Assembly (NCBI GenBank): GCA_050260175.1 | Contig: JBLNBS010000042.1 | Coordinates: 1,544 to 65,543, forward strand | Length of the DNA: 64,000 bases | Direction of reading: 5' to 3' | DNA from: Patescibacteria group bacterium | GTDB taxonomy: Bacteria > Bacillota > UBA4882 > JAAYXC01 | Part shown: positions 13,638-35,705 of the stretch, piece by piece | How the letters are laid out: each line of letters starts with the position of its first letter | How positions within the stretch are numbered: position 1 is the stretch's first letter | The notes under the pieces: model-generated | What the model saw: only the letters and a program-made list of their open reading frames with translations | What the model was told of the DNA's origin: nothing | Database searches by the model: none | Position numbers and translations under genes: made by a program

Positions 13638-14020
13638 CCGGACGTCCCCCTTTCCCTTCGATTATCAATCTCGGATGGCCGCGGAGCAAGGGTTCCTCTT
13701 CCGCCCCTGGGCCGTCCCGCGTCCCATTGGCGGCAAATACGGGGCATGTGCGGAGGTGGATGCAGCGAGAGGGCGGTTATTTAACTTTCTCCCAGAATGA
13801 AAGAAATAGACCCTTGTCCTGGCGGGCAAATGGACACACGCTGATTTACCAGGGAAAATAAGTTCGAACAGGCAGGAATCGTCCTTTGAGGCCAGAACAT
13901 GTTTGATAATCGTTGCAGAGCGTGAAGTTCTCTTCCAATTATTTCAACCAGATAGAAAGAAAAAGGTACCATCCCCTGTACGGCTTGGCATGGCGAAAAC
14001 TCCCGGGGAGGTCTTGGCAA

Positions 14021-15391
14021 GTGGCCTGGGCACGGAAGGATACCTGGCGCAAGGAAGCCGCACTCGTCGAGCAGGTTCTCGAGGCGGCACCGCCCATAGA
14101 CCGCCATCTCCGCATCGGGAGGGAGGAATTCGAGGCGCGCCGGCGCAAGGTCGTCGCGGCGCTGGCCCGGCGGGGGCTGGACGCGGGCGTGGTGTATTGC
14201 GACGCGCATTACAACGGCGACGTGCCCTACCTCGGCGGCAACACCAACATCACCATCGAACCCGTGGCCGGTGTGGTCGGTCCCGGTGGATTCCACATCC
14301 TGGCCGGCCTCGAGGGCGGCTACGTGGTCGAGCAGCTTGCCAAGAGGTCCGGCGCGATCGTGCACAAGGTCGAGATGCTCAAACTCGCGGACGAGAACTA
14401 TCCCATCGAGGCTGAGCGGGTGGAGGACGTCATCGCCGCGGCGGCCGGCGGGCGCCCGTCGCGCATTGGCCTTCTTACCCCGCGGCAGGTGCTGCCGGCC
14501 AGTTTCTATCAGTTCCTGGCCGGCTATACGGGCTCTCCGGACGGCGCCGGGGTCATCGACGTCCAGGAGGATTACTACCGTATCAAATACCTCAAGTCAG
14601 ACGCGGAGATGCGCCTCATCGGCGAGGCCAGCAAGATCGCTGACGTGATGATCCGGGCCATGCTGGCGGTGCTCAAACCCGACATGCTCGAGACGGAGGT
14701 CGCCGCCTGGGGGTGTCTCGTGGCCAAGGAACTGGGCGCGGAGGAGATGGGCTGGGATGTGATGGTCACGGCCAACACGGCCAACCGCACCCTGATCGGC
14801 AAGGCGCTCAACCGGCCCATCAACCGGGGCGACATGGTGCATATCGGCGTCGCGCCCAAGTGCGACGGCCTCAATTCCTGCGAGCGCGTCTCCGTGGCCG
14901 CGGTGGCCGATCCCGCGGAGGTCACGCCCGCGCAGCGTTACTGGTTGGATTTCGTGGGCCGGGCCTTCGAGGCGGGCCTCGCGGCCTACCGCCGGGTGGC
15001 GGCCGAAAATCTCCCCGCCAGGCTGCAGGAGCAGGCACTGGTGGACTACTTTGCCGCCAGATCGGCCGAGGTCTCGGCCCGTGTGGGCCGCCCGGTGGAC
15101 ATGACCAGGCAAAAGCCGTATACGGGCACGCACAACGGCGGCTACACCGAGTGCCAGGAGTTCTACGGCGCCATCACGCTCGATTCGGAGGAGCCGCTCG
15201 GCGGGCAGATCGTCACCATGCTCGACGTGGCCGTGCGCGGGGTGGGCGACAGTTTTGACGACGTGATCATCCCGGATCTGGACTACGTCGTGGTCGAAAA
15301 GACCCTGGGCAAATACGGCCCCAGGGTGGAGGTGCTCAACAAGCTACCCGTGGACGTGCAGCACCTGGTGGGGCACGCCGGCGGGGTGTGA
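14021..15391 (+). CDS. creatinase/prolidase-like M24 family peptidase (paralog 1)
   Basis: Creatinase_N-like plus M24 'pita-bread' domains. About 65% identical to the paralog at 26056..27411. GTG at 14021 (RBS GGGGAGG) aligns with the N-terminus of paralog 2; ORF track gives 13913. Confidence 0.65.
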   Translation: MAWARKDTWRKEAALVEQVLEAAPPIDRHLRIGREEFEARRRKVVAALARRGLDAGVVYCDAHYNGDVPYLGGNTNITIEPVAGVVGPGGFHILAGLEGGYVVEQLAKRSGAIVHKVEMLKLADENYPIEAERVEDVIAAAAGGRPSRIGLLTPRQVLPASFYQFLAGYTGSPDGAGVIDVQEDYYRIKYLKSDAEMRLIGEASKIADVMIRAMLAVLKPDMLETEVAAWGCLVAKELGAEEMGWDVMVTANTANRTLIGKALNRPINRGDMVHIGVAPKCDGLNSCERVSVAAVADPAEVTPAQRYWLDFVGRAFEAGLAAYRRVAAENLPARLQEQALVDYFAARSAEVSARVGRPVDMTRQKPYTGTHNGGYTECQEFYGAITLDSEEPLGGQIVTMLDVAVRGVGDSFDDVIIPDLDYVVVEKTLGKYGPRVEVLNKLPVDVQHLVGHAGGV

Positions 15392-15410
15392 CGCAAAGGG
15401 GGATTTCATC

Positions 15411-16130
15411 ATGGGTGACGAGGCAAGGATTACCGTCCTGGCGCTGGGGGCGCATCCCGACGACCTGGAGTTCATGGCCGGCGGGACCCTGGCCAATTTC
15501 GCCCGGGCGGGCCACCGGGTGGTGATGGCCACGGCCACCAACGGGAACCAGGGGCACATGGTGATCATGCCGCCGGAACTGGCCGCGATCCGCCGCGAGG
15601 AGGCAGCCAGGGGCGCGGCGGTCATCGGCGCTGCTTACGAGGGGCTGGGGATCGACGACGAGTTCCTCACGGACTCTCTGGAGGACCGGATGAAGGTCAT
15701 CGAGCTTTTCCGGCGGGTACAGCCGGATCTCGTCATCACCAATCCGCCCGATGATTACCATCCCGATCACCGCGCCTGTTTCCAGCTCGTCTTCGACGCC
15801 AGCTTCGTGGCCACCGTGCCGCACATCAGCGATTCCCCGCGCCTCAAGGCCGTGCCGCAGATCTATACCATGACGCCGGTGGGCGGGATCGACGCCCAGC
15901 CGGAGTTCTACATCGACATCACCGAGACGATCGGGATCAAGCTGGAGGCCCTGGGCAAGCACGAGAGCCAGGTCGTCTGGCTCAAGGAGCACGACAATTT
16001 CGATCTGGTGGCGACCGCCCGGGCCGAGGCGGCCCATACCGGTTTCAAATGCGGCGTGGCCTATGCCGAGGGCTTCAGGCGCGTGCATCGCTATCCCGGC
16101 ATTAGGGCGCAGAGGCTCCTGCCTTACTAG
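15411..16130 (+). CDS. PIG-L (LmbE-like) family N-acetylglucosaminyl deacetylase
   Basis: LALGAHPDDLEF and PDDYHPDH zinc-binding signature motifs. Confidence 0.8.
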   Translation: MGDEARITVLALGAHPDDLEFMAGGTLANFARAGHRVVMATATNGNQGHMVIMPPELAAIRREEAARGAAVIGAAYEGLGIDDEFLTDSLEDRMKVIELFRRVQPDLVITNPPDDYHPDHRACFQLVFDASFVATVPHISDSPRLKAVPQIYTMTPVGGIDAQPEFYIDITETIGIKLEALGKHESQVVWLKEHDNFDLVATARAEAAHTGFKCGVAYAEGFRRVHRYPGIRAQRLLPY

Positions 16131-16280
16131 ATTCCACAGGCTTGACGCGGAAGGGGGTGGGCGGAGGGCCCGGAGCCTGTATCGGTCTTTGCGGTACGGC
16201 ACGGCGCGGAAATGCACGAAAGCGGTCTTTCTGGCTTGAGCTTCGCCTTCAGGGATGAATTTCGAAAGGTGGGCGAGATT

Positions 16281-17615
16281 GTGAAGGGGAAACGGCTGAT
16301 CGGTCTCTTGCTCGTGGCTTCGGTGCTGTTGGCCACCTGGACGTGCACCACGGCGCTGGCGGCCAAGAGGGAGCTCGAGGTGGCTATCTTCGAGTGCGCT
16401 TACGGCATGGATTTTCTCAAGACCCTGGCCGCCGGGTATGAGAAGGAACATCCCGACGTCAAGGTCAACGCCTGGGGCAATCCCCGGGTCTGGGAGCAGC
16501 TGCGGCCGCGGTTCATCGAGGGGAATCCGCCCGATCTGATGATCCCGGGCTGGGGCTTTTCCACCTGGCCGGCCATTGCCGAAAACCAGATCCTGGCCCT
16601 GGACGAGGCCCTGGCGGGCAAGTCATACGACAAGAAGAGCGTGTGGAAGAACACCCTGCAGCAGTTGGAGAGCTTCCAATACAAGGGCAAGACCTACGGC
16701 GTGCCCTATTTCCTCGACGTCTTCGGCTGGTGGTACAACGAGGCTCTTTTCAAACAAAAAGGCTGGAAGGTGCCGAAGACCTGGGACGAGCTCTGGAAAC
16801 TCTGCGACAAGATGAAGAGCGCCGGCATCGCGCCCTTTGCCACCTGCGGCCTGACGCCCGACTACATCGTCTACTGGCGCTGGGGTGTCTTTGAATACTA
16901 CGTGCAGCGGCTCGGCGGTATCAAGGTGCTGGAGGACGCCCTGAACATGGTGCCCGGCGCCTGGAAGCACGAGGCCATCCTCAAGGCGGCCGATATCGCA
17001 CAAAAGGTCAACCGCGACGGCTACTTCCTCCAGGGTACGCTCGGGCTCTCCCACACCGACTCCCAGGTCATGTTCTTTACCGGCAAGGCGGCCATGATCC
17101 CGGTCGGTTCCTGGGTGCAGGTCGAGAGCCAGGATGTCATCCCCAAGGACTTCAAGCTCCGCTTCATGGTTCCGCCGGCGATCAAGGGCGGCAAGGGCGA
17201 CCAGACCGCCATCCACGTACAGAGCAACACCTCGGCCTCCTGGTTCGTGCCGGCCAAGGCCAAGAATCCAGACTTGGCCATCGATTTCCTCAAGTACGCG
17301 ACGAGCCTCAAGAATGCCATGCAGAGCACCAAGCTCGGCGCTTCAGCCGTGGCCGTGAACGGGGCCTTCAAGGCGGTCACCGCCGCGAGCGTCCTCTCCT
17401 CCTGGAACGCGGTGGCCAAGGCCAAGACCACTTTCAACAGCAGGGTCTGGGAGACCAGGTACCCGCCGTTCGACAAGGACTACAACATCGCTATCTACGA
17501 CCTCGTCACCATGAAGAAGACGCCGCAGCAGTTCGCCGCGTATATGGAGGAAGCGGCCGAGAAGATCAGGCAGGACAAGAACACCGTCTGGTTCCCGGTC
17601 AAGCTCTCCAAGTAA
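16281..17615 (+). CDS. ABC transporter extracellular solute-binding protein (family 1, carbohydrate-type)
   Basis: GTG start with RBS GAAAGGTGG. Signal/lipobox-like N-terminus LLVASVLLATWTCTTALA. SBP_bac_1-like composition. Confidence 0.75.
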   Translation: MKGKRLIGLLLVASVLLATWTCTTALAAKRELEVAIFECAYGMDFLKTLAAGYEKEHPDVKVNAWGNPRVWEQLRPRFIEGNPPDLMIPGWGFSTWPAIAENQILALDEALAGKSYDKKSVWKNTLQQLESFQYKGKTYGVPYFLDVFGWWYNEALFKQKGWKVPKTWDELWKLCDKMKSAGIAPFATCGLTPDYIVYWRWGVFEYYVQRLGGIKVLEDALNMVPGAWKHEAILKAADIAQKVNRDGYFLQGTLGLSHTDSQVMFFTGKAAMIPVGSWVQVESQDVIPKDFKLRFMVPPAIKGGKGDQTAIHVQSNTSASWFVPAKAKNPDLAIDFLKYATSLKNAMQSTKLGASAVAVNGAFKAVTAASVLSSWNAVAKAKTTFNSRVWETRYPPFDKDYNIAIYDLVTMKKTPQQFAAYMEEAAEKIRQDKNTVWFPVKLSK

Positions 17616-17700
17616 GCCGATGATTTCCAGCGGGCGGGGGTGGGAATCCACCCCGCCCGCCGCCGGCCCGCCATAGCCTGTCTAAAAGGTGGGATAGCGT

Positions 17701-18774
17701 TTGACTCCGCGCGAAAGGTTGCGCGCCACCCTGGACTTTTCGACCCCCGATCGGATACCCTGGACGCTCGATATCGGGGGTATTGGCGGTTTCTCCCCCA
17801 TGCTCCTCGAGAGGTTCAGGCGCGAGACCGGCATCGAGGATCCAGCCGCCCACTTCGATTACGATTACAGGCAGATCGGTACGGTCTACCGGCCGCTGGC
17901 CCTCGATCGCGAGCGCTACCTGCCGGACCTGCCCCCCGAGGGCAGCATCAACGAGTGGGGCATAGGGATCGTGCCCTGGCCGGACAATCCCGGTTTTACC
18001 CAGGTGGTGCATCCCTTCCGGCGCTTCGAGGATCCGGCGGAGGTGGACGCCTTTCCCAGGTCCGAGGTGGATCTCGACGCCATGCGGCACGCCGCCGCCG
18101 CCGTACATGCGGCGGGGCGCTTGGCCGTCGCCCACTCCGGCAGCATCTACGAGCTGGCCCGCTGGTACCGTTCGATGGAGGAATTCCTGGTCGACCTGGC
18201 GATCCGCCCGGAGATGGCAAACCGCATCCTGGACATGTGCGCGGAGCTGACCCTGGGGATCAGCCTGGCCCTGGCCGCGGCGGGCGTGGATATCCTGGCC
18301 TTTTACGACGATTTTGGCATGCAGACCGGGTTGCAGATCAGCCCGGTGATGTGGCGGGCATACGTCAAGCCGCGTTGGGCCGCTGTTTTGGGAGCCATCA
18401 GAAGCGCATACCCGGGGGCCCTCTTCTTTCTCCATACCTGCGGCAGGATCGAGGAGATCGTGGACGACCTCGTCGAGCTGGGTTTTGACCTCCTCCATCC
18501 CCTGCAGCCCGAATGCAACGACCTCGAGGCAGTCGCCGCGCGGGTGAGGGGCAGGTTGACGGTCTGGGGCACCATCAGCAACCAGAGGACGCTGCCTTTT
18601 GGGAGTAGAGACGATCTGCGCCGGGAGATCGAGCAGCGGATCGCGCTGTTCGGCCGCCGGGGCGGGCTCGTCCTCTCGCCGTCGAACATCATGGGACCCG
18701 AGATCCCGGTGGCCAACGTGCTCGCCCTGGCGGAATTGTGCGCGGAGTTGTGCGGTAGCGGGAGTGGAGGTTGA
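17701..18774 (+). CDS. uroporphyrinogen decarboxylase (URO-D/MtaA) family protein
   Basis: N-terminal ERLRATLDFSTPDRIPW (URO-D family start) and TIM-barrel length. Paralogous to 28458..29597. Confidence 0.75.
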   Translation: MTPRERLRATLDFSTPDRIPWTLDIGGIGGFSPMLLERFRRETGIEDPAAHFDYDYRQIGTVYRPLALDRERYLPDLPPEGSINEWGIGIVPWPDNPGFTQVVHPFRRFEDPAEVDAFPRSEVDLDAMRHAAAAVHAAGRLAVAHSGSIYELARWYRSMEEFLVDLAIRPEMANRILDMCAELTLGISLALAAAGVDILAFYDDFGMQTGLQISPVMWRAYVKPRWAAVLGAIRSAYPGALFFLHTCGRIEEIVDDLVELGFDLLHPLQPECNDLEAVAARVRGRLTVWGTISNQRTLPFGSRDDLRREIEQRIALFGRRGGLVLSPSNIMGPEIPVANVLALAELCAELCGSGSGG

Positions 18775-18780
18775 TCCGTC

Positions 18781-19671
18781 TTGGGCGTGGTTGCGAACGA
18801 GCGAAGAAAACTGATCCTGGCCTTCCTGGCGCCAGCCACGGCGCTCTATCTTCTTTTAGTGGTCTATCCCGTGCTGCGCGCCTTCCAGTACAGCCTCTTT
18901 TTCTGGCGCGGGATCTCGGCCAACATGCGCTTTGTCGGCCTGGAGAACTTTGCGCGCATCATCACGCGCGACAGGGACTTTTGGGGCTGCCTGGGCAACA
19001 ACGCCCAGTACATGCTCATCACGTGCCTGGTCATCCTCCCCCTGAGCCTGCTCATCGCCGTGCTGCTCGCCAAGAAAGGCAGGGGATCGCGCGTCTATCC
19101 CGTGATCTTTTTCGGCCCTAATGTCCTTTCCCTGGCCACCGTAGCCATCCTCTGGATGTTCATCTATAATCCCATCCTCGGGCTCCTCAACGGTTTCCTC
19201 AGGCTGATCGGCCTTGGTTCCTGGGCGTACACGTGGCTCGTCGACCCGATCAAGGCCCTGCCCGCCATCTCGGTTGCCGAGATCTGGCGCCTGACCGGTT
19301 TTTACATGCTCCTCTTCCTGGCCGGCATCAAGAACATCCCCGCGGATCTGTACGAATCGGCACGCATCGACGGGGCTTCGGAGATCAAACAGTTCTTTCA
19401 CATCACCCTTCCCATGCTGACGGAGATGATCCAGATCGCCACCGTCTTTCTCGTCATCAACGGCCTGAACGTCTTCGTGCTGCCTCAGATCATGACAGAC
19501 GGCGGACCGGGCAGGCATACCCAGACGGCCGCGCTCTACATGTACGAGCAGGCCTTCAAGAACTCCAACTTCGGCTACGCTTCGGCCATGGGATTGATTA
19601 TGTTCGCCATCGTCATGCTGGCCTCGGTCATTTCTCTGCGGCTCACGAGGAGGGACTCGATTGAATACTAG
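18781..19671 (+). CDS. ABC transporter permease (MalF/UgpA-like)
   Basis: Six TM helices and the EAA-loop region IDGASEIKQFFHITLPM. Confidence 0.8.
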   Translation: MGVVANERRKLILAFLAPATALYLLLVVYPVLRAFQYSLFFWRGISANMRFVGLENFARIITRDRDFWGCLGNNAQYMLITCLVILPLSLLIAVLLAKKGRGSRVYPVIFFGPNVLSLATVAILWMFIYNPILGLLNGFLRLIGLGSWAYTWLVDPIKALPAISVAEIWRLTGFYMLLFLAGIKNIPADLYESARIDGASEIKQFFHITLPMLTEMIQIATVFLVINGLNVFVLPQIMTDGGPGRHTQTAALYMYEQAFKNSNFGYASAMGLIMFAIVMLASVISLRLTRRDSIEY

Positions 19672-20533
19672 AACGGCGGCGGCCAAGAAACACGGGCTTC
19701 GCCCCGGGCGGCTCCTGCCCGGCCTGTTGAAACACCTCTTCCTCGCGGGCTACGCGGTGGTTGTGATCTATCCTGTGCTCTGGGTCATCACGAGCTCGCT
19801 CAAGGACACCCTGGAGATCTTTGCCAGCCCGTGGAAACTCCCGACCATGCTGCGTTTTGAGAACTACGCGCGGGCCTGGATCGAGGCCCAGCTCGGCCGC
19901 TACTTCCTGAACAGCATCTTCGTGACCGTCATCACCCTGCTCTTCGTGACCTACATCGGCGCCATGGCCGCTTATGTCATCGCCCGCATCCCCTTTTGGG
20001 GGCAAAAGTTCTTTTATTACTTCTTCACCTCGGGCCTGGTTTTCACGGTCTTCCTGGTGCTGGTGCCGCTTTTCATCCTCCTGAAGGATCTCAGGATGTT
20101 AGACACTTACTACGGCTTGATCTCAGCCTACGTGGCCTACAGCCTGGCCTTCACCATCTTTGTGCTCGTCGGCTTTTTTCGCACCGTGCCGGGCGAGATG
20201 GCGGAGGCCGCACGGGTCGACGGCTGTTCGGAGTTCGCCATCTTTTGGCGCGTGATGCTGCCGATCGCCAGGTCGGGCCTGATCACGGCCACGATCTTCA
20301 ACGCCTTGGGCATCTGGAACGAGTTCATCCTGGCCATGATCATCATCGCCCGCAACGAGCTGCGCACCCTGCCCATCGGCCTTGCGGCCATGCTCAACCG
20401 CAACCAGTACCGGACCGATTGGCCGGCCCTCTTTGCCGGCCTGGTGATCGTCATCGTTCCCACGTTCATGGCCTACGCGTTCTTTCAGCGGCAGCTGACG
20501 GAGAACGTCACTGCCGGGGCGATCAAGGGATAA
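19661..20533 (+). CDS. ABC transporter permease (MalG/UgpE-like)
   Basis: EAA motif region EAARVDGCSEFAIFWRVMLPI. Overlaps the previous permease gene. Confidence 0.8.
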   Translation: MNTRTAAAKKHGLRPGRLLPGLLKHLFLAGYAVVVIYPVLWVITSSLKDTLEIFASPWKLPTMLRFENYARAWIEAQLGRYFLNSIFVTVITLLFVTYIGAMAAYVIARIPFWGQKFFYYFFTSGLVFTVFLVLVPLFILLKDLRMLDTYYGLISAYVAYSLAFTIFVLVGFFRTVPGEMAEAARVDGCSEFAIFWRVMLPIARSGLITATIFNALGIWNEFILAMIIIARNELRTLPIGLAAMLNRNQYRTDWPALFAGLVIVIVPTFMAYAFFQRQLTENVTAGAIKG

Positions 20534-20546
20534 GGAGCGAGGGCGC

Positions 20547-21593
20547 ATGCTGTACCGTCCCGATGTCGACGAGGTCGTCGAACGTTACCGCCGCTACTGG
20601 GCGGGAGAGATGCGTGACCAGGTGCTGATCCTGGCCACCCTGGCCGGTGAGGATATCTTCGCCTCGTGGCTGGGCTGGCCTTCGTACGAGGACACTTTCG
20701 CCAGGTTCGACGCGTTCTTCCAACACCGGCTGGGGATAGAGGACGATACGATCCCCGTGGCCCTGCCCGGTTTGGGCCTCGGGCCTTGGGGCGGGATGTT
20801 CGGCGCCGAGGTGACGCTCATGCCGAGCGCCAGTTCCAGCATCCCCTTCCCCTCCATCCAGGCCGTCCTGGACCTGGTCCTGGACAAGGAGAACTATTGG
20901 GTCAAGCGCCAGCTCGATTCCGTGGCTTATTTCTGCGAACACGCCAAGGGCAGGTTCGCCGTGGCGCCGGCCGAGACCATCTCGGGGGTGAACGTCCTGT
21001 ATGCCCTCAGGGGATCCGAGGTCTTCGCCGACCTGGCCGAGGATCCCGAGGCCTGCCTGAAGGTGATCGATCTCGTGCGCCCGATCGGCATCTGGATGGC
21101 CGAGGAACAGAAAAAGATGACCGGCTCCTACCGGGGCGGCGTCTTCGATCACTGGCAGGTCTGGCTCCCCGGCAATCCCGTCTGGTTCTCCGTGGACATG
21201 AACTCCCTTTGCTCCCCGGCTTATTACGACCGGTTCGGCTTCCACGACACCCAGGCTTTCCTGGACCATTTCGGGGGCGGCTTCATCCACGTGCACAAGC
21301 CCACGGGTCTCTATCTCCTGCCGCAGCTCGTCAAGCACAGGCATGTCGCGGGATTCGAGTTCTACCACGACCTCGGCTCGCTCGAGACCTGTTTCACCGG
21401 CTTGCGCGAGATCAGGGACATGGTGGGCACGGGCCTCCTGGTGGACTGCGACTTCGCCCAATTCACCGCCCAACTCGAGCAAAAGACCCTGCCGGGCGGC
21501 ATCATCTACGAGGTCAAGAACTGCCCGGGGGCGGCCGCCGCCAACGAACTCGTGGCCAGAGCGCGGGCGTACAGGGATCCCGGCGTGGACTGA
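20547..21593 (+). CDS. hypothetical protein (unassigned fold) in catabolic operon
   Basis: 348-aa ORF with coding-like composition and an RBS. No motif recognised. Confidence 0.4.
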   Translation: MLYRPDVDEVVERYRRYWAGEMRDQVLILATLAGEDIFASWLGWPSYEDTFARFDAFFQHRLGIEDDTIPVALPGLGLGPWGGMFGAEVTLMPSASSSIPFPSIQAVLDLVLDKENYWVKRQLDSVAYFCEHAKGRFAVAPAETISGVNVLYALRGSEVFADLAEDPEACLKVIDLVRPIGIWMAEEQKKMTGSYRGGVFDHWQVWLPGNPVWFSVDMNSLCSPAYYDRFGFHDTQAFLDHFGGGFIHVHKPTGLYLLPQLVKHRHVAGFEFYHDLGSLETCFTGLREIRDMVGTGLLVDCDFAQFTAQLEQKTLPGGIIYEVKNCPGAAAANELVARARAYRDPGVD

Positions 21594-21670
21594 AAGTCAC
21601 TTTAAGTCGCATAGCCCGAAAGGCATGACTCACATCCCGTTTCGTTTGTTGCAGGGGGGGGGGCGAAACG

Positions 21671-22759: not shown

Positions 22760-23143
22760 CAGTATGGGTTCGCGTGTTTCCCGCGGCGGGCTCGATACAC
22801 AGGAACTCCTGCCCCGCGGCGCGCCCGGGGCGATCAGGGCCGAGGTGAAAAGGCTGTCGAGTCTGATGGCCGCGGTCTGCGGCGGGCATCGACATTATCG
22901 GGCCGGAATGCGCCATACCGCTTCGCACGGGCAGGGCGGGCCTGGCCGCCATCTCAGCGCGGGTCCGCCGGGACGGCCCGGCGCGGGCAGGAGGCCGCGG
23001 CGGGGGCCGCGAATAACCGTTTGGCGTTTATAACCATTTTCTTATGTAAGAGGCCTTTATAAGGCCGTGCCGTTTTCCTCCATCACGGCCCGGCTGAAAG
23101 CGGTGATGCCTTGGTGCAACGGCGGCCTTCGGATCCGCGCGCC

Positions 23144-25141: not shown

Positions 25142-25171
25142 TCAACCATGAAAAACAAGGAGGTTTAATTC

Positions 25172-28418: not shown

Positions 28419-28457
28419 GAACTCGTGCATCCAATTTCTTTCGAGGTTGGTGTCCAG

Positions 28458-29597
28458 ATGTTGAAACCCAGAGAACGCATGGCCCTGGCCCTGGACCATC
28501 GCAACCCGGACCGGGTGCCGCTCGACTTCGGCAGCAGCATCACTTCGATCACGGTCGAGGCCTATGAGAATCTCAAAAGACATCTCGGCGTAAGCCTGCC
28601 AACCCGTATCATAGGCAAGGCCCTGGAAACCGCCGAGGTCGACGAGGAAGTGCTGGGACTGCTCGGAATCGACACCCGCTATCTCCGGCCGATACTCCAT
28701 GGCCCCCTGGCCACGGAGGTGCTCGTTGACGAGGGCTATACCGACGAGTGGGGGATTCGTTGGCGGAGGTCGGCGGGCGGCCGTTACTACGACATCGTGG
28801 CGTCCCCGCTGAGGGATGCCGATCTTGTCGACCTGTCACGGTACCGCTGGCCAGCGACGCACGATCCCGAAGCCCTGCGCGAGGTCAAGGCCGAGGCCAA
28901 AAGGCTTTTAGAACAGACGGACTACGCCTTGGTGGCCGATCCCCTGGCACCCGCCATTTTTGAACCCGCGTGGTATCTCAGGGGCCTGGACCAGTTCCTG
29001 ACCGATCTGGTGCTCGATCGCGCCTTCGCCGACAGGCTCCTGGGCAACATCCTCCAGCATAGGCTCGAGTTTTTCGAGGCTTTCCTCGACGCTGTCGGCA
29101 ATTCTGTCCAGGTCGTAGTCCTCGGAGACGACCTGGGCATGCAGGATCGCCCCCTGCTTTCACCCTCGCTCTACCGGGAGATGATCAAACCTCGGCACAG
29201 GGAACTATTCCAGTTCATCAAGTCCAGGACGAAGGCAAAGATCTTTCTTCATAGCTGCGGCTCGATTATCGATCTCATCGATGACCTCCTGGATGCCGGC
29301 GTGGACATCCTGCACCCTCTACAGACAACCGCGGCGCGCATGGAGCCGGAGGAACTCAAACGAAGGTTCGGCGACAGGCTCGTTTTCTGGGGCGCCGTGG
29401 ATATCCAAAGGGTATTGCCAGCGGCGAATGATGCCGAATTCGAGGCTTACCTGCAAAGGATCATCGGGTCACTCGGCAGGCAGGGAGGTTTCGTCCTGGC
29501 GCCGGGGCACAACATCCAGGCCGACACGTCGGCGGAACGCATCGTCAGCCTGTTTCGGACGGCCATGCGTTTTGGCGAATACGGACGAGATAACTGA
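28458..29597 (+). CDS. uroporphyrinogen decarboxylase (URO-D/MtaA) family protein (paralog 2)
   Basis: MLKPRERMALALDHRNPDRVPLDF N-terminus parallels 17701..18774. ATG at 28458 is the likely start. Confidence 0.75.
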   Translation: MLKPRERMALALDHRNPDRVPLDFGSSITSITVEAYENLKRHLGVSLPTRIIGKALETAEVDEEVLGLLGIDTRYLRPILHGPLATEVLVDEGYTDEWGIRWRRSAGGRYYDIVASPLRDADLVDLSRYRWPATHDPEALREVKAEAKRLLEQTDYALVADPLAPAIFEPAWYLRGLDQFLTDLVLDRAFADRLLGNILQHRLEFFEAFLDAVGNSVQVVVLGDDLGMQDRPLLSPSLYREMIKPRHRELFQFIKSRTKAKIFLHSCGSIIDLIDDLLDAGVDILHPLQTTAARMEPEELKRRFGDRLVFWGAVDIQRVLPAANDAEFEAYLQRIIGSLGRQGGFVLAPGHNIQADTSAERIVSLFRTAMRFGEYGRDN

Positions 29598-29773
29598 ACG
29601 GTTTTGCGCCGGAACGGGCTGGAATAGCCGTAAGCCGGGCGCGACGGGGAGGTGATGCCGGGCGGAAGGACGGACTCCGTTTTCAGGAAGGAGTGGTCCC
29701 TTCCCTTAATGGGTTCATCATGGCGACACGGACGATGAACACAAGGAGATCAAAGATCAAGGAGGTCAGAATC

Positions 29774-31108
29774 GTGAAGAGGAATCGACGGCGTCTGGGT
29801 ATGTTCGTGATGGCAGTCACCGTCATGATTCTGCTGGTTACCTTCGCCACGGGCCAGGCCGCAAAAACGATCACTTTGACCTTTTGGCACCATGAGGCAC
29901 CCGCCCATCGGGTCGCGGCCATGCAAAAGGTCATCCAGATGTTCGAGAAGGCCCATCCCAACATCAAGCTCAATCAGCAGGTGGTGATGTGGGGCGACGC
30001 GTGGCCTAAGACCATCGCCTCCATCCAGGCCGGCAACACCCCCGATTTTCAGATGTCCCTGCCTGAGCTGACCCTGGTCGGCAACCGCATGGGCGCCGCC
30101 CTGCCGGTGGACGATCTCATCAAGGAACTCGACAAAAAGTACAAGTTCATCAAGTCGCAGCTGGCGCCGTATTACTACGAAAAGCACCACTGGGGCGTGC
30201 CAATCTGGACTATGCCAATGACCATCCTCACGTACAGGCCGAGTTACCTCGAGAAGTATGCCGGCACCTCCGAGCCTCCCAAGACCTGGGATGAGCTGCT
30301 GGCCATGGCCAAGAAGCTTACGGTCGACACCGATAACGACGGTAAGATCGATATTTACGGCATCGGTCTCACCGCCGGCAACAACCTCTGCACGCAGGAG
30401 CAGGTCTACACCTTCATGGCGGCCGCTGGAGCCACGATGTTCGACGCCAAAGGCAACCTGACCTTTAACAGCGCGCAGACGAAGAAGGCCATCCAGTTCT
30501 ACGCCGATCTCTTCAAGTTCGCTCCGCCGGGTGCCACCGGTTGGCTCTGGGGCGAACTGGAGCTGAACTTCGGCGCAGGCAGCGTGGCCATGATGCCGTA
30601 TTTCGGCACCCTGCAAAAACGCTTCTACGACATGAAGAGCTTTGACTATGCAGCCGTGCCCATGCCATACCCCGCGGGAGGCAAGTCGGCGGGCCTCATC
30701 TATCCCAACGACATCACGATCTACAAGGCCGCCCAGAAACGCGGCCATCTCAAGGCCGTCAAGGACTTCGTCCGCTTCGTTTCCCGTCCCGATATCAATG
30801 CCATCCTGACCGCGGGCGCCGAGCCGGGCGGATTCGTGCCCGTCACCGAGGCCGCGACCAAGGACAAGGCATACTGGAACAATCCGATCATCGCCAAGTT
30901 CAAGGAGCTTAACGAGACCATCATCTCCACGATCCCCAACGGCAAACTGTATGGCTTTGAGCATGGATCCCTGGCCAACTTTGGCGTGGGCGACATCTCC
31001 GGCGCCAACATCATCGCCGAGGCTGCCCAGAAGGTCGTGACGGGCAGCGCCACGGTGGATCAGGCGGTGGAATGGGCCACGGCCGAGATTAAAAAACTCA
31101 TGAAGTAA
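29774..31108 (+). CDS. ABC transporter extracellular solute-binding protein (family 1)
   Basis: GTG start after GGAGG. Signal peptide MFVMAVTVMILLVTFATGQAA. SBP_bac_1-like. Confidence 0.75.
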   Translation: MKRNRRRLGMFVMAVTVMILLVTFATGQAAKTITLTFWHHEAPAHRVAAMQKVIQMFEKAHPNIKLNQQVVMWGDAWPKTIASIQAGNTPDFQMSLPELTLVGNRMGAALPVDDLIKELDKKYKFIKSQLAPYYYEKHHWGVPIWTMPMTILTYRPSYLEKYAGTSEPPKTWDELLAMAKKLTVDTDNDGKIDIYGIGLTAGNNLCTQEQVYTFMAAAGATMFDAKGNLTFNSAQTKKAIQFYADLFKFAPPGATGWLWGELELNFGAGSVAMMPYFGTLQKRFYDMKSFDYAAVPMPYPAGGKSAGLIYPNDITIYKAAQKRGHLKAVKDFVRFVSRPDINAILTAGAEPGGFVPVTEAATKDKAYWNNPIIAKFKELNETIISTIPNGKLYGFEHGSLANFGVGDISGANIIAEAAQKVVTGSATVDQAVEWATAEIKKLMK

Positions 31109-31229
31109 CCAAAACGGGCGTGCTGCGGAGCACGCCAGGCCCAAAACAGCCGGGGGCTCCGGGGCATCCCGGACGCCTCCGGCCTGAAGACCGCAAGGCG
31201 GGGTAAATCAGGGTTGTGGATGTGATGCA

Positions 31230-32111
31230 ATGCTAAAGCACGGGCAACATGCCGCCTACCTGTTATTGATGCCGATCATCCTGCTTCTTCTGGTCCTGAT
31301 CGTCATTCCGGTGATCTGGACGTTTTATCTGTCCCTGCACAACACGCCCTTCGGCTTCGGAGACATGAAGTTCGTGGGTCTAGGCAATTATCTTCAGCTC
31401 CTTGCCGATCCGGTTTTCTGGGGATCGTTCAAGATCTGGATACTCTGGGGCTTTGGCAATCTGGTCCTGCAGATGACGATACCTCTGGGCATCGCCCTGC
31501 TGCTTAACCGGCATTTCCCCGGCAACAACCTGGCCCGCATGCTCGTCGTCATCCCATGGATTATCCCCATGGCTGTCATCGCCATCCTGACGCGCTGGAT
31601 GTTCGAGCCGACTCTAGGCATTATCAACGAACTCCTGTTGACGACGGGCCTCTCGAGCCAGGCCGTGAACTTCCTCGGTTCGAATATGAACGCTCTGCCC
31701 GTGCTGATCATGGTCAATTCGTGGAAGTATCTGCCTTTTGGCACCATCATGATCCTGGCCGTGCTCCAGACCATCCCGGAAGAGCTCTACGAGGCGGCCA
31801 CGGTCGACGGTGCCTCCGGTTTCCAGCAGTTCAAGCATATCACGTTCCCACTGCTCGGGACGGTGGTCTGGTTTGTTGCCTTCCTGGCATTTGCCTGGAG
31901 CATGAATGCATTTGACCTGATCTGGCTGACGACGGAGGGCGGACCTGGCAATTCCACCATGACGCTACCGGTCATGATCTACAAAAGGGCCTTCAAGACA
32001 TTCTCAGCCGGGACAGCCTCGGCCATTGCCATATTCATCACGATGTTTTTAACTGTTACGGGTGTCTTCTACTTTAAATACCTCAGCCCAAAAAAGGATG
32101 ACGGCAGATGA
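31230..32111 (+). CDS. ABC transporter permease (MalF-like)
   Basis: TM helices and the EAA loop EAATVDGASGFQQFKHITFPL. Confidence 0.8.
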   Translation: MLKHGQHAAYLLLMPIILLLLVLIVIPVIWTFYLSLHNTPFGFGDMKFVGLGNYLQLLADPVFWGSFKIWILWGFGNLVLQMTIPLGIALLLNRHFPGNNLARMLVVIPWIIPMAVIAILTRWMFEPTLGIINELLLTTGLSSQAVNFLGSNMNALPVLIMVNSWKYLPFGTIMILAVLQTIPEELYEAATVDGASGFQQFKHITFPLLGTVVWFVAFLAFAWSMNAFDLIWLTTEGGPGNSTMTLPVMIYKRAFKTFSAGTASAIAIFITMFLTVTGVFYFKYLSPKKDDGR

Positions 32112-32965
32112 AGAAATTCCCGGTGAGAGGCTTTCCTGGCGGAACCGCGCTTCAGATGCTGATCGTGGCGGCGGTGCTTGCCGTCATGCTGTTTCCGTTT
32201 TATTGGATCTTTTCTTCATCTTTTAAACCGATCGGCGAGATCATGACCACCCACCCGTCGCTCGTGCCCAGACAGCCGACTCTCCGGAATTATCTGGAGA
32301 TTTTCTTGTCCATCAGTCCCGTGCGCAACTTCCCGCGTTTCCTACTGAACAGCCTGATCGTGTCCCTGGCGACGGCTGTGATCTCGACACTGATTGCCAT
32401 TGCGGGAGGTTATGCCCTGGCACGTTACTCTTTTCCCGGCAAGACCGCTCTCTCGCGCTGCCTGCTCTTCGTCTACGTCTTTCCCACAGTCCTGCTCCTG
32501 GTGCCGATCTATCAGATCATGACCAAACTCGGTTTGCTGGACAAGTGGATCAGCCTGGTCATCGTCTATACGACCCTGGTGGCGCCCTTTTGTGCCTGGC
32601 TCTTGAGCGGTTTTTTCCGGTCAATCCCGATCGAACTGGAGGAATCGGGCCGGGTCGACGGCGCCAGCAGGTTCGGTATTCTATTTCGAATCCTCCTGCC
32701 CATCGCCGCCCCCGGCGTGGTGACCGCCGCCGTCTATGCCTTCGTCACCTCCTGGGGTGAGTATATGTTCGCGTTGCTTCTGATGTTTTCCAATGAGATG
32801 AAAACCGCGCCGCTCGGCCTCTCAAGTTTCATGGCCGAGCAGTACATCGAATGGGGGCCGCTGCTGAGTGGATCGGTCCTGGTAATCCTCCCAATAACCA
32901 TCTTTTTCCTGCCGTTTGCCAAGTATTTCGTCAAGGGGCTTGCCTCAGGTGCGGTGAAAGGCTAG
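32108..32965 (+). CDS. ABC transporter permease (MalG-like)
   Basis: EAA loop ESGRVDGASRFGILFRILLPI. 4-nt overlap with the upstream permease. Confidence 0.8.
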   Translation: MKKFPVRGFPGGTALQMLIVAAVLAVMLFPFYWIFSSSFKPIGEIMTTHPSLVPRQPTLRNYLEIFLSISPVRNFPRFLLNSLIVSLATAVISTLIAIAGGYALARYSFPGKTALSRCLLFVYVFPTVLLLVPIYQIMTKLGLLDKWISLVIVYTTLVAPFCAWLLSGFFRSIPIELEESGRVDGASRFGILFRILLPIAAPGVVTAAVYAFVTSWGEYMFALLLMFSNEMKTAPLGLSSFMAEQYIEWGPLLSGSVLVILPITIFFLPFAKYFVKGLASGAVKG

Positions 32966-32987
32966 AAACTCTGATCGGGAGGGTGAA

Positions 32988-34331
32988 TTGGACGTGAAAA
33001 AGGGACTAAGACGGTTAGCCGTTTTGTGCGCCGTCTTCCTGGCTGTGGCCGGCTTTGTACCGTACGAGACCGGGGCTTTTGATAAGATCCAGGAGGACGC
33101 TCCTTGCACGGTGGAGGTCGTCAAGGAGTATATGCTCCCGGTCTGTGAACTGGCATCCACCCTGACCGAGCCGGAGGTCATCAAGCTGGCCAACGGACTG
33201 GTCGAAGTCTCCCTTGTACCTAACCGCGGGCGGGTCCTCTTTGAATATCTCTATAAACCGACCGGCGTCAATTATCTATACGCCTCCAGGCAGCCGATCC
33301 CCTTCGAGACGGCGGACGGTTATATCGCTGAATTCGGGGGTTACTACCTGAGTCTCCCATGGAACACCCGCGACCGGCAACCTTACGATCTGGAACGGGA
33401 GATCGTGGCCAAAAGCGGCGATGAAGCCTCAGTGAGACTCTGGGCGCGCGATCCCGCCACCGAACTGATGGCTGAGATTCTGATCAGTCTGCGCAAAGGT
33501 TCCTCCCGGGTGGAGATCAGCAGTGTGCTGAAGAACGACCAGTCCCGAACAGCGGCCTTTATCCCGGGCGATCATTGCGTCATGGCCTACCCGGCGGCAG
33601 GGAAGCCCACGACCCTCTGGCTGCCCGCGGAGAAGGTGGTGCCGGGGGAAAACCAGGGCGGCTGGATGGGCCCGGCCGGGCAGTCAAAACCATGGCCTCA
33701 ACCATGGCTTCTTTCCAGTTCCTTTCGTGCCAAGGGCGAATTTGCCGTTCCGCGCCTCGAAGCTCCGTTCTTTGCCGTCGCCGGTGCAGGGGCGGGTTTC
33801 GTGCGCAGCTGGTCTCCGGCGGATATCTACGATACCCTCAAGGTTTTTGCCTGGGGCACCAGATACGGGGATGAACTGGGAGGAGAGCGATACGCGCATT
33901 TCGTCGCCGGCGGGCCCAAACGGGAATTACCAGCCGGCGGGAGCATGAAGACGACAACCTACCTCTATGCTGCGTCAAAGCTTGAAAACATCATCGCAGC
34001 CAACGGCGAGGCGTGCGTCTCCGCCATTTGGGATGCGGCCAAGAAGCAGGCCAGGTTCGCCGTGGCTCGCCCCGCCGTTAATGGGGAGGCGGTGCGTCTG
34101 ACCTTGACCCTGGCTGCTCCTGACGGCAAGATACTGGGCTCGGCAACTAGCGGGGAACTGGCGGGAGTCGGTCCGAACATGCCCGCATTCGGCGGTTTGT
34201 CTCTGCCTATCGCACCCAAGGACCTTGCCGCCCAAAGCCTGCGATTGGTGGTTGTGGTCGAGGATTCGTCAGGCGGCAGGCTGCTTGAGCAGACCGTCCC
34301 AGCTGCGCTGATCTTGCCGCTCAAGCGCTAG
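32988..34331 (+). CDS. exported mutarotase-like/unknown-function protein, last gene of module 2
   Basis: N-terminal signal/anchor LAVLCAVFLAVAGFVP. Beta-rich and distantly similar in layout to 21671..22759. Confidence 0.4.
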   Translation: MDVKKGLRRLAVLCAVFLAVAGFVPYETGAFDKIQEDAPCTVEVVKEYMLPVCELASTLTEPEVIKLANGLVEVSLVPNRGRVLFEYLYKPTGVNYLYASRQPIPFETADGYIAEFGGYYLSLPWNTRDRQPYDLEREIVAKSGDEASVRLWARDPATELMAEILISLRKGSSRVEISSVLKNDQSRTAAFIPGDHCVMAYPAAGKPTTLWLPAEKVVPGENQGGWMGPAGQSKPWPQPWLLSSSFRAKGEFAVPRLEAPFFAVAGAGAGFVRSWSPADIYDTLKVFAWGTRYGDELGGERYAHFVAGGPKRELPAGGSMKTTTYLYAASKLENIIAANGEACVSAIWDAAKKQARFAVARPAVNGEAVRLTLTLAAPDGKILGSATSGELAGVGPNMPAFGGLSLPIAPKDLAAQSLRLVVVVEDSSGGRLLEQTVPAALILPLKR

Positions 34332-34441
34332 GTCAGTTTGCCGGACTCCCGCGCGTATTCCAGGGAGTGCGCCAAGTCAGGCACACCCTTGGGATAATCG
34401 AAGGATCGCACGCCAGGGACGGCGTCGTCATGGAGGACGAA

Positions 34442-34484
34442 AGGTTCGGCGGGCGCAAGGATAGCGGCCCGCCGAACCTTTTTC
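34442..34484 (+). terminator. rho-independent terminator after module 2
   Basis: Perfect 13-bp stem AGGTTCGGCGGGC / GCCCGCCGAACCT with a 12-nt loop, followed by TTTTT. Confidence 0.7.
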
Positions 34485-34568
34485 CCGTGACACCGTGCAG
34501 CGCGGAACTGTTTTGGCTTGCCGGATCGCACTTGGCGAGAGAGATCTCCCGCCCCTGCCTTTTCATGC

Positions 34569-34967
34569 TCAATCCCTTACTTCCGCTTCAGGCGCCTCTT
34601 CCCGTTGCCCCATGACCCGGAACGCCATGGCGCAGTGCGGGCAGACGGCGGTGTACCCCTGTTCGCGCAGGGGCGCGCGCATGCGTCCGTCGCAGCGGGG
34701 GCATTGGAGGATCAGGCTTTCGCCCGGCGCGAGAGGCGCGCGGGCAGGTTCCGCGGCGCCGGGCCGGACGGGGTTACCGCAGCAATTGCAGGCATACCCC
34801 GTTTCAGGCCGGCCGACCGGAAAGACTGGCACGAAAAAAAGCGTGAAATAGCTGCGCGCGGTGATCCGTTCCAGGTTGCGCAGATCGCCGCATACCGGGC
34901 AGAATCCCCTGCCGTCCGTCCCCTCCCGTTTTACGACCGGCCGGATGCCGCAGATGATGAAAAACAA
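34569..34967 (-). CDS. zinc-ribbon domain protein
   Basis: CPVCG...CNCCG and CPRC...CPHC cysteine pairs. Confidence 0.35.
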   Translation of the reverse strand: MFFIICGIRPVVKREGTDGRGFCPVCGDLRNLERITARSYFTLFFVPVFPVGRPETGYACNCCGNPVRPGAAEPARAPLAPGESLILQCPRCDGRMRAPLREQGYTAVCPHCAMAFRVMGQREEAPEAEVRD

Positions 34968-34988
34968 GATACGTGCCCCCCAATCTTC

Positions 34989-35705
34989 CTAGACCGGCCT
35001 CAACTCCCCGTTGACCCATTCCAAGCGGCGGTAAGCCTCGCCAAGCTTGGCCTTGATTCGCTTGCCGTATTCGGCCGCCGTGGCCCGCAAAGCGGTCTCG
35101 ATTCCGTCCCACCCCGCGCCCGTCTGGCTCGCGTGGCAGCGCAAGGCCTCGAGCTTTTGGGGAAAGACCTTGGTCACGTCATTGACGCGGCAGGGCTCGG
35201 GCAGGTTGGTGCCAAATAACAGGTAGCACGCGGGCGAGTCAGTCCATGCCTTTGGCTCATTTTCCGGGAAGTACCTGACGCAGGGATGCAGGTAGCCGGC
35301 CTCGAAGGCCACGCGGCCCACGGTGGTGTGATCGGGGTGCGGGTCCAGGCTCTGGGGATCAAAGGTGATGAGGACCTGGGGCTGGTAATTTCGCATGGCG
35401 CGGTACAGCCTGGCGCGGAGCGTGTTCAGGCTGGCGTATGCCAGATCGCCGTCGGGCAGGTCAAAGAAGATCGTCTCCTGGACGCCGGTGACGGCTGCGG
35501 CGGCCATCTGCTCCCGGCGCCGCGCGGCGGCCAGGGCCGTTTCGTCCACGCCGGGATCGCGGGTGCCCTTGTTCCCCGAGGTCGCGATGATGTGCACGAC
35601 GCGGTTCCTGCGCGCGAGCTGGCAGATGGTCCCCCCAAAGAGCCACTCCAGGTCGTCCGGGTGGGCGGTGACGGCCAGGATGGTGCGATCGGTGAATTCA
35701 AGCAT
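34989..35705 (-). CDS. PIG-L (LmbE-like) family deacetylase (paralog 3)
   Basis: AVTAHPDDLEW and DPHPDH motifs. Confidence 0.8.
   Translation of the reverse strand: MLEFTDRTILAVTAHPDDLEWLFGGTICQLARRNRVVHIIATSGNKGTRDPGVDETALAAARRREQMAAAAVTGVQETIFFDLPDGDLAYASLNTLRARLYRAMRNYQPQVLITFDPQSLDPHPDHTTVGRVAFEAGYLHPCVRYFPENEPKAWTDSPACYLLFGTNLPEPCRVNDVTKVFPQKLEALRCHASQTGAGWDGIETALRATAAEYGKRIKAKLGEAYRRLEWVNGELRPV

Follow-up and report, generated by a model that had tools for sequence, protein, structure and literature searches.

Two neighbouring transporter-linked gene modules combining M24-like, PIG-L and URO-D-fold proteins, with a possible role in amino-sugar breakdown

Introduction

Described routes for the breakdown of N-acetylated amino sugars, such as NagA/NagB/NagC, AgaA/AgaS/AgaI and the archaeal Dac-GlmD route, follow a common logic in which a deacetylase precedes a deaminase or isomerase. 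A comparable logic can be recognised in two gene modules that stand side by side at 13.9–34.3 kb of a 64,000-nucleotide stretch of DNA (contig JBLNBS010000042.1 of assembly GCA_050260175.1, positions 1,544 to 65,543 of the forward strand; hereafter the window), which is labelled as Patescibacteria group bacterium in NCBI. As in the NagA/NagB/NagC system, a ROK regulator of the NagC type is present, and, as in the aga cluster, an SIS protein and a NagB-like protein occur together. Furthermore, the orthologous region of Thermatribacter velox holds NagA-like and GntR/UTRA genes, which recalls the canonical routes for N-acetylglucosamine (GlcNAc) and N-acetylgalactosamine. In contrast to the canonical GlcNAc route, the deacetylases of the modules belong to the PIG-L family rather than to the amidohydrolase family of NagA, and the NagB-like protein reaches 52 bits with TIGR00502 versus a cut-off of 237. 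The modules differ from both the canonical GlcNAc and the Dac routes in being devoid of a kinase, a phosphotransferase system and a glycosidase, and in the addition of M24-like, URO-D-fold, DUF4432 and DUF4910 proteins, for which the known routes have no place.

Some of these added families are known from other contexts. EutD, a hydrolase of the M24B (pita-bread) fold that attacks a C–N bond other than a peptide bond, cleaves the acetamidine ring of ectoine, and the N-acetyl product is processed by a deacetylase encoded next to it (PMC8739950). The EutD/EutE (DoeA/DoeB) system resembles the modules in that a gene for an M24-fold hydrolase stands beside a deacetylase gene, here of the PIG-L type and adjacent in 15 of 80 M24 loci, and the AlphaFold2 (AF2) model of the M24-like protein matches EutD (6twk, TM 0.62–0.70) as well as creatinases. 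However, the M24-like proteins are only about 14% identical to EutD, the partner deacetylase (PIG-L/LmbE) is of another family than EutE, the transporter is a sugar-type ATP-binding cassette (ABC) system of the CUT1 class rather than TRAP or Ehu, and the gene context is that of amino sugars rather than of diaminobutyrate catabolism. With MtaA, CmuA and HemE, the URO-D-fold proteins share the (beta/alpha)8 fold and the PF01208 domain, and their LHxCG motif aligns with the zinc motif of MtaA. They differ from the methyltransferases MtaA and CmuA in that no corrinoid partner is encoded nearby and the third zinc ligand is His or lost, and from all three enzymes in that their genes are embedded in sugar ABC operons and their equivalog scores lie far below the cut-offs. 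The SIS_2 protein of module 2 is homologous over its full length to the GlcNAc-6-phosphate dehydratase NagS (SCO4393) and belongs to the same PRK02947 subfamily; the study describing NagS relates this clade to the etherase MurQ and reports homologues of about 30% identity outside the Streptomycetaceae without NagS activity. Finally, sugar amides, not peptides, have been proposed as the substrates of the DUF4910 family (PMC4000134). The DUF4910 protein of the window resembles CA_C2195 as an M28-like domain associated with amino-sugar-modifying genes, but its Pfam match is weak (30 bits) and its setting is catabolic and transporter-linked instead of a cluster for the biosynthesis of nucleoside diphosphate sugars.

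Literature searches on URO-D with LmbE and M24, on DUF4432 and on URO-D with a solute-binding protein (SBP) and a deacetylase returned nothing relevant, and amino sugars are not mentioned in the paper on T. velox. Together with NCBIfam equivalog matches that are all far below their cut-offs, this agrees with the original prediction, made from the DNA letters alone, that the modules do not belong to a described pathway.

Gene content and organisation

Open reading frame (ORF) calls and Pfam scans placed 18 genes, all on the forward strand, at 13.9–34.3 kb, and recovered every gene that the original prediction had named, at the position given there. Its central claim, two modules with the same parts list and a ROK regulator between them, was borne out by Pfam. 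Each module encodes a CUT1 binding protein with two permeases, alongside proteins of the M24-like, PIG-L deacetylase, URO-D-fold and DUF4432-like types; module 2 adds an SIS_2 and a NagB-like protein, and module 1 adds a second URO-D-fold protein, which the prediction had missed in an otherwise correct list. The locus is a carbohydrate-utilisation locus of a known kind, with an enzyme set that is unusual, conserved and uncharacterised.

Module 1 begins with M24-like copy 1 (13913–15391; PF00557 37 bits), whose conserved core begins near 14027, followed by PIG-L/LmbE deacetylase 1 (15411–16130; PF02585 99 bits), SBP 1 (16212–17615; SBP_bac_1 2e-29), the MtaA-like URO-D-fold protein 1 (17701–18774; PF01208 76.6 bits), two permeases (18781–19671 and 19661–20533; BPD_transp_1), the second URO-D-fold protein of 348 amino acids (20547–21593), which has no Pfam match and was assigned by fold search, and a cytoplasmic, mutarotase-like DUF4432 protein (21671–22759; PF14486 1.5e-18). 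The order SBP, URO-D, permease, permease replaces the predicted order in which URO-D followed the permeases. Divergent from module 1, on the reverse strand, lies the gene of a 647-amino-acid M28/DUF4910-like protein (11694–13637; Peptidase_M28 2e-10, DUF4910 3e-7). The ROK regulator between the modules (23144–24364) combines an N-terminal winged helix-turn-helix with a ROK domain in the manner of NagC and Mlc (ROK 3.7e-36 and HTH_24).

Module 2 comprises PIG-L/LmbE deacetylase 2 (24440–25141; PF02585 110 bits), the SIS_2/UPF0309 protein (25172–25954; PF13580 2.8e-28), M24-like copy 2 (26056–27411; PF00557 45.7 bits), a divergent NagB-like deaminase/isomerase of 336 amino acids (27408–28418), URO-D-fold protein 2 (28458–29597; PF01208 72.5 bits), SBP 2 (29774–31108; SBP_bac_1 2.9e-29), two permeases (31230–32111 and 32108–32965; BPD_transp_1) and a 447-amino-acid protein (32988–34331). 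PIG-L thus directly adjoins M24 in module 1, and in module 2 the SIS_2 gene stands between them. The 447-amino-acid protein had been called mutarotase-like: a remote likeness to DUF4432 was confirmed by BLASTP, but the protein has no Pfam match and carries an N-terminal signal peptide, which is also found in its 34% identical homologue from T. velox. Because of this signal peptide, it is predicted to act outside the cytoplasm.

Gaps between the genes inside the modules are at most 121 nt, except between URO-D 2 and SBP 2 (29597/29774), and module 2 ends in an intrinsic terminator on the forward strand (34439–34482) with a 16-bp GC-rich stem followed by UUUUU (66-nt fold, minimum free energy −36.6 kcal/mol, z −5.9). 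GC-rich hairpins with modest z-scores directly 3' of both SBP genes (17630–17667, z −1.6; 31117–31136, z −1.8) are typical of differential mRNA stabilisation of SBP transcripts. With one SBP_bac_1 protein and two BPD_transp_1 permeases, both modules have the make-up of a CUT1 importer. The ATPase is presumably a shared protein of the MsmK/MsiK type encoded elsewhere; no LSGGQ or Walker A motif was found in a coding frame of the window. Likewise, the window gave no Rfam match to a riboswitch or the glmS ribozyme, and no convincing operator palindrome common to the three promoter regions was found. Searches of a plasmid collection with M24 and URO-D yielded no match or uninformative matches.

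Relationship of the two modules

All-against-all BLASTP of the window proteins matched families of one module with their counterparts in the other: identity is 69% (624 bits) for the M24 copies, 49% (9e-82) for the PIG-L proteins, 31–32% (4e-35 and 6e-46) for the permeases, 30% (3e-32) for URO-D 1 and 2 and 25% (2e-7) for the SBPs, and a pairwise comparison aligned the DUF4432 protein with the 447-amino-acid protein at 21% identity over about 200 amino acids (2e-6). Judged from these alignments, the paralogy is far beyond chance. The term tandem paralogous used in the original prediction therefore holds as far as paralogy is concerned, but not if it is taken to mean local duplication. A recent tandem duplication was ruled out because orthologues from elsewhere are nearer to each M24 copy than the copy of the adjacent module is (79% identity between copy 1 and its closest relative, P0098, and 74% between copy 2 and P0002), and because genes of module 2 are 48–73% identical to those of T. 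velox versus 25–30% to those of module 1, with SBP and URO-D at 48% in the former comparison and 25–30% in the latter. Given a family-wide mean identity of 71% among the M24-like proteins, the two window copies are no closer to each other than orthologues from other phyla. The GC content at third codon positions also differs (about 0.86 in module 1 and about 0.74 in module 2). The modules are anciently diverged or separately acquired systems that came to stand side by side, and module 2 gives the impression of two recurrent blocks joined together, one a core of URO-D, SIS_2 and ABC genes and the other made up of NagB-like, M24 and PIG-L.

Active sites of the M24-like and URO-D-fold proteins

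Inspection of the active sites, proposed as a check in the original prediction, covered the M24-like and the URO-D-fold proteins. The M24-like proteins match PF00557 with 37–46 bits (cut-off 23), and the AF2 model has the two-domain fold of prolidase, creatinase and EutD, with a pita-bread catalytic domain and a creatinase/prolidase N-domain; prolidases and creatinases were retrieved by Foldseek with TM 0.6–0.8. However, the five-ligand dinuclear metal site of peptidase M24 (Asp, Asp, His, Glu, Glu) is incomplete. In the alignment of copy 2 to 3q6d, the first Asp corresponds to Gly273 and the second to Cys284, both invariant among the 30 family members aligned, as are H271, H368, E374, C375, E377, D399 and E423. 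The M24-like protein is unlikely to be a canonical peptidase because both Asp metal ligands are lost, and its active site appears remodelled and non-canonical. An invariant loop, THNAGYTECQE, is the sole part that AF2 cannot place (pLDDT <50). More than 2000 homologues with 62–75% identity occur across at least eight phyla, and the lineages include Firmicutes, Spirochaetota, Verrucomicrobiota, Omnitrophota, Ratteibacteria, Acidobacteria, Atribacterota and Armatimonadota.

URO-D 1 and 2 belong to the URO-D superfamily (cut-off of PF01208 23.9 bits), and their best matches are methyltransferases of the MtaA/CmuA type, with 4ay7 as the match in the PDB. The MtaA/CmuA NCBIfam scores are 32–69 bits versus cut-offs of 235–400, and the HemE equivalog TIGR01464 gives 23.5 bits versus 303. 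When aligned to MtaA (4ay7), URO-D 1 retains LHxCG and has Asn or Ser in place of the third Cys. In URO-D 2, which has more than 1000 homologues, H265 and C267 are invariant, and a His conserved in at least 90% of sequences, H351, takes the place of the third zinc ligand. The HxC pair is thus kept in both proteins, and the third ligand is changed or lost. The 348-amino-acid protein of module 1 matches the superfamily by fold only and is without the HxC motif: its AF2 model (pLDDT 90) retrieved MtaA (4ay7) and several HemE structures as top Foldseek matches (TM about 0.63), and a profile comparison of its family with URO-D 1 gave a probability of 6%, so that the fold search alone resolved its kinship. 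Among 5.8 billion sequences it has 12 homologues, one of them with PF01208. One 30% identical homologue (L036, GCA_964401335.1) is encoded directly after a GH95 (fucosidase-family) gene, a pairing that is another link of this URO-D fold to glycan breakdown.

The original prediction had stated that no corrinoid protein is present, and indeed the DxHxxG..SxL..GG motif is absent from all frames of the 64-kb window. The pattern was validated by the same search, which found genuine corrinoid proteins in four other M24 loci. In addition, no corrinoid, MttB or activase gene lies within 10 kb on either side of the T. velox URO-D gene, although a corrinoid gene may be located elsewhere in the genome. 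The URO-D gene stands inside the transporter genes in three unrelated arrangements, namely in both modules of the window and in T. velox (the order in locus L038 is that of module 1). More distant URO-D homologues (41–47% identity) are found with GFO_IDH_MocA, AP_endonuc_2, DegT and creatinase-type M24 genes or with MttB, DUF4432 and inositol-1-phosphate synthase genes, and some stand alone. In one such locus (L124, JGI Ga0646000_000030), a 43% identical URO-D homologue is divergent from an adjacent MttB-like gene, with DUF4432, inositol-1-phosphate synthase and a ribose-type ABC system nearby, which shows that the same families recombine in other arrangements. The four loci with genuine DxHxxG corrinoid proteins all carry an M24-like gene; the corrinoid gene is accompanied by URO-D-like genes in L008 and L028 and by MttB-like genes in L041 and L065, and L028 and L041 also encode a second, creatinase-type M24 protein. 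These four may be methylamine or creatine-type demethylation systems.

Amino-sugar enzymes, binding proteins and regulator

An N-acetylated amino sugar as the theme of the locus, as put forward in the original prediction, is in line with the PIG-L motifs, the catalytic residues of the NagB-like protein and the regulator. All three PIG-L proteins of the window have intact AHPDD and HPDH motifs and belong to PF02585 (99–110 bits, cut-off 28), and their scores with BshB1 (96–133 bits, with 131 for PIG-L 1 and 133 for PIG-L 2) lie below the cut-off of 182.5. The NagB-like protein, whose TIGR00502 score likewise falls short of the equivalog cut-off, is matched by glucosamine-6-phosphate deaminases of the PDB at 2.5e-7. 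According to the alignment to GNPDA1 (1ne7), it keeps the equivalents of Asp72, His143, Glu148 and the phosphate-binding Arg172, with Asp141 replaced by Cys; its conserved stretches are FNMDEY, GHIAFxE and R...L. The SIS_2 protein is a UPF0309 member (PRK02947, 207 bits versus a cut-off of 135) with PDB matches to 3cvj (1e-27) and, as a distant homologue, NagS (9eol, 2e-25). It falls outside the NagS orthologues, which are marked by at least about 59% identity, occurrence in Streptomycetaceae and linkage to dmdR1. The best NCBIfam match of the regulator is NagC (2.4e-43; 149 bits versus a cut-off of 650). Among solved structures, the best relative of SBP 1 is 9h0n (1e-33), a binder of fucosylated lacto-N-biose blocks; those of SBP 2, 8ula and YcjN (8vqk), are generic.

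Conservation in other genomes

Clusters related to each module were found in other genomes. A metagenome contig (L038) carries, with 55–75% identity, genes for PIG-L, SBP, URO-D, two permeases, the 348-amino-acid URO-D-like protein, ROK, M28/DUF4910 and a second M28-like protein. The M28/DUF4910 protein behind this module-1-like cluster is a 55% identical orthologue, and because the gene is kept there, we assign M28/DUF4910 to the module 1 system. An M24 gene directly upstream of PIG-L was considered for this contig and rejected, as this is where the contig stops, and its partial ORF is unrelated. A cluster orthologous to module 2 is present in Thermatribacter velox B11 (CP121689.1, about 1,520,600–1,529,500, L120), a cultured member of the Atribacterota, and in a JGI contig (L122). 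In both, it encodes NagB-like (73%), GntR/UTRA, PIG-L, SIS_2 (54%), SBP (48%), permease (56%), URO-D (48%), permease (55%) and the exported protein (34%), and it continues with NagA-like, GntR, an FGGY kinase, another SIS_2 and another ABC system; it does not include M24.

A neighbourhood census, the co-occurrence check proposed with the original prediction, covered 80 loci of at least 6 kb with an M24 orthologue of 60–75% identity. GFO_IDH_MocA was the commonest neighbour (25 loci, adjacent in 14). PIG-L of two subtypes occurred in 17 loci (about 20%) and was adjacent in 15, URO-D occurred in eight (about 10%), and NagB-like and ROK in six each; LacI was found in 11 loci, and TPP-dependent (thiamine pyrophosphate) E1 alpha/beta, MttB-like and AsnB-type amidotransferase genes in ten each. 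A block of NagB-like, M24 and PIG-L recurs in L026, L057, L060 and L085, in some of them with ROK. The pairing of M24, URO-D and PIG-L had been described as obligatory; these counts and the T. velox cluster without M24 contradict this, and the association appears, from gene neighbourhoods, to be recurrent and non-random, not obligatory. Elsewhere, M24 orthologues adjoin a GlmD-type deaminase, a DegT aminotransferase and GFO oxidoreductases resembling UDP-GlcNAc 3-dehydrogenase. Overall, a conserved set in anaerobic phyla consists of the URO-D zinc protein, UPF0309 SIS, PIG-L, divergent NagB and the exported DUF4432-like protein, often with an M24-like protein with the Gly/Cys site.

Two other settings of the M24-like gene were observed. 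In ten of the 80 loci, it is part of an operon with the order LacI, GFO_IDH_MocA, M24-like, TPP E1 alpha and E1 beta, often with a lipoyl protein next in line (L004, L033, L041–L046 and L058 are listed), which is a different, equally uncharacterised context. In L013–L017, L021, L073, L074, L077 and L093, from Omnitrophota, Ratteibacteria, Vermiphilus sp. and unclassified metagenome-assembled genomes (MAGs) or metagenome contigs, it directly follows an AsnB-type amidotransferase gene within a GT4/DegT cluster resembling glycan biosynthesis. The best NCBIfam match of this amidotransferase is that of the XrtA/PEP-CTERM system, and the adjacency hints at amidated or amidino sugars as substrates of the M24 protein.

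Proposed function and alternative explanations

Gene content, paralogy, cross-phylum synteny and active-site features are the observations from which we infer a substrate class, an order of steps and roles for the M24-like and URO-D-fold proteins. We propose, as an evenly balanced hypothesis, that the modules import amino-sugar glycosides and subject them to stepwise de-N-acylation and deamination or isomerisation. Amino-sugar derivatives are suggested by the importers, the NagC-like regulator, the N-deacetylase, the deaminase/isomerase, the NagS/MurQ-related SIS protein and the NagA, GlmD-like and DegT neighbours in other genomes. The presence of three amidase-type folds (PIG-L, M24 and M28/DUF4910) suggests a substrate whose amino group bears acyl or amidino substituents, which would have to come off ahead of deamination.

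According to this hypothetical scenario, two independently evolved catabolic operons, arranged head to tail under the control of a NagC-like ROK regulator, would each import and process an amino-sugar glycoside with an N-acylated amino group. Import would proceed via the CUT1 binding protein and the two permeases, driven by a shared ATPase encoded elsewhere, and in module 2 the exported DUF4432-like protein may act first on the extracellular substrate. In the cytoplasm, the N-substituent would be removed by the zinc-dependent PIG-L, the M24-like protein and, for module 1, M28/DUF4910, with M24-like and PIG-L probably forming a hydrolase/deacetylase pair like EutD and EutE. The freed amino sugar would next undergo deamination, isomerisation or beta-elimination by the NagB-like and UPF0309 SIS proteins. 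The three URO-D-fold proteins would contribute an additional step, for which O- or S-dealkylation and decarboxylation are candidates.

Several points weigh against this proposal. Neither module encodes a glycoside hydrolase or a sugar kinase, although the retained Arg172 equivalent of the NagB-like protein suggests a phosphorylated substrate, so that essential steps must be encoded elsewhere. No enzyme comes near the cut-off of the characterised equivalog closest to it, and hence each activity is extrapolated; distant UPF0309 homologues are devoid of NagS activity. It is not obvious why the model would require a URO-D enzyme, and about 80% of the loci with M24 orthologues are without PIG-L, some of them in glycan-biosynthesis or TPP-dehydrogenase contexts, so the M24 reaction may not be de-N-acylation.

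Among the alternatives, a corrinoid-dependent demethylation of O- or N-methylated sugars, with the URO-D proteins as MtaA-type enzymes served by a corrinoid protein encoded elsewhere and the other enzymes finishing the demethylated amino sugar, would account for the MtaA/CmuA-type best matches of URO-D 1 and 2 and for the invariant HxC zinc motif with His as the third ligand in the module 2 type. M24 orthologues do occur elsewhere near MttB-like and URO-D genes, including the four loci with a genuine corrinoid protein, and the host lineages are anaerobic, which makes O2-dependent demethylases unusable. We nevertheless regard this explanation as unlikely: the window contains no corrinoid protein, MttB or activase, and none is found in the 10 kb around the T. 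velox URO-D gene, the NCBIfam scores of 32–69 bits are remote from the cut-offs of 235–400, URO-D 1 is devoid of the third zinc ligand and the 348-amino-acid paralogue of HxC. It is improbable that the modules recycle peptidoglycan or muropeptides from necromass, a route in which imported peptides of GlcNAc and N-acetylmuramic acid would have their stem trimmed by M24 and M28, be deacetylated by PIG-L and lose the lactyl ether through the SIS protein. Peptidase folds of the M24 and M28 type beside an SIS protein of a MurQ-related clade would suit such a route, as would PIG-L, the NagB-like protein, the NagC-like regulator and the NagA-like and sugar kinase genes adjoining the T. velox cluster. 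But the M24 protein has lost both Asp metal ligands, DUF4910 has no conventional peptidase site (PMC4000134), homologues of NagZ, AmiD/AmpD and MurK/AnmK are absent, the binding proteins resemble oligosaccharide binders, and the role of URO-D would remain unexplained.

The absence of a glucosaminidase, any other glycoside hydrolase or a kinase also speaks against ordinary catabolism of chito-oligosaccharides or GlcNAc disaccharides of the archaeal Dac type, in which PIG-L would be followed by the deaminase and the M24 and URO-D genes would be unrelated passengers. PIG-L, ROK, SIS and NagB-like proteins together resemble the Dac/GlmD logic of the Thermococcales, and SBP 1 is weakly similar to the chitin-oligosaccharide binders 7ehp and 7eho (3e-16). 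Yet a passenger gene would hardly be embedded between transporter genes in three arrangements, as URO-D is, and M24 is adjacent to PIG-L in 15 loci, so that we consider this explanation quite improbable. Most improbable appears a salvage of thiol glycosides such as bacillithiol (Cys-glucosamine-malate) or mycothiol (acetyl-Cys-glucosamine-inositol), with PIG-L as a BshB- or Mca-type amidase, M24 removing the cysteinyl group and the URO-D zinc site handling the thiol. The best NCBIfam matches of the PIG-L proteins are BshB1, BshB2, Mca and MshB, zinc sites of the MtaA type activate thiols, and cleavage of the Cys-glucosamine amide suits an aminopeptidase-like chemistry of M24. However, with BshB1 scores of 96–133 bits, under the cut-off of 182.5, these may be merely the curated models that lie nearest to the PIG-L proteins; the modules contain no thiol-specific enzyme, and Atribacterota, which have the cluster as well, are not known to produce such thiols.

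Returning to the proposed breakdown of amino-sugar glycosides, it is a tentative and rather doubtful further step to see in the modules an undescribed pathway for N-acylated or alkylated amino-sugar glycosides with a corrinoid-independent URO-D reaction new to the superfamily and an M24/PIG-L bimodule that acts as amidine/amide hydrolase and deacetylase on sugars. As leads, the ultra-conserved M24-like clade with its substituted site and the URO-D proteins in sugar ABC operons without a corrinoid partner stand out most. If the proposal holds true, it would give a first physiological role to the M24-like clade (>2000 members), the URO-D subfamily (>1000), UPF0309 outside Streptomyces, DUF4432 and DUF4910, and it would reveal how anaerobes, including Atribacterota and other subsurface lineages, recycle amino-sugar-rich necromass or glycoconjugates. 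Since T. velox B11 is cultured and carries the orthologous cluster, these hypotheses are directly testable.

Surroundings of the modules

A third PIG-L gene (34989–35705, reverse strand; PF02585 102 bits) lies convergent to module 2, and its product is 32–34% identical to the PIG-L proteins of the modules. It is co-directional with a Zn_ribbon_15 gene (34569–34967, reverse strand) and adjoins prs. This PIG-L may be a housekeeping deacetylase, for example of thiol biosynthesis, and not a member of the catabolic modules.

The modules stand between housekeeping genes, the GC content of the window is about 60–70%, and the flanks encode LepA, Prs, FakA-like, SpoIIP and SpoVAE proteins (window positions 47089–49751 are listed for this observation). 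SpoIIP, SpoVAE, LepA, Prs and FakA together with the high GC content point to a spore-forming member of the Bacillota and not to the Patescibacteria of the NCBI label, and the MAG is probably mislabelled or mis-binned. At 50352–52755, a DUF2229 protein and a BcrAD_BadFG ATPase are encoded side by side; the pair resembles the activator of 2-hydroxyacyl-CoA dehydratase or benzoyl-CoA reductase and is unrelated to the modules. The products of an island of low GC content (53007–61893; 0.44–0.47 versus about 0.65) are a PIN protein, a ResIII helicase, HATPase_c_3 and an N6/N4 DNA methylase; the island probably serves restriction-modification or defence and was probably gained by horizontal transfer.

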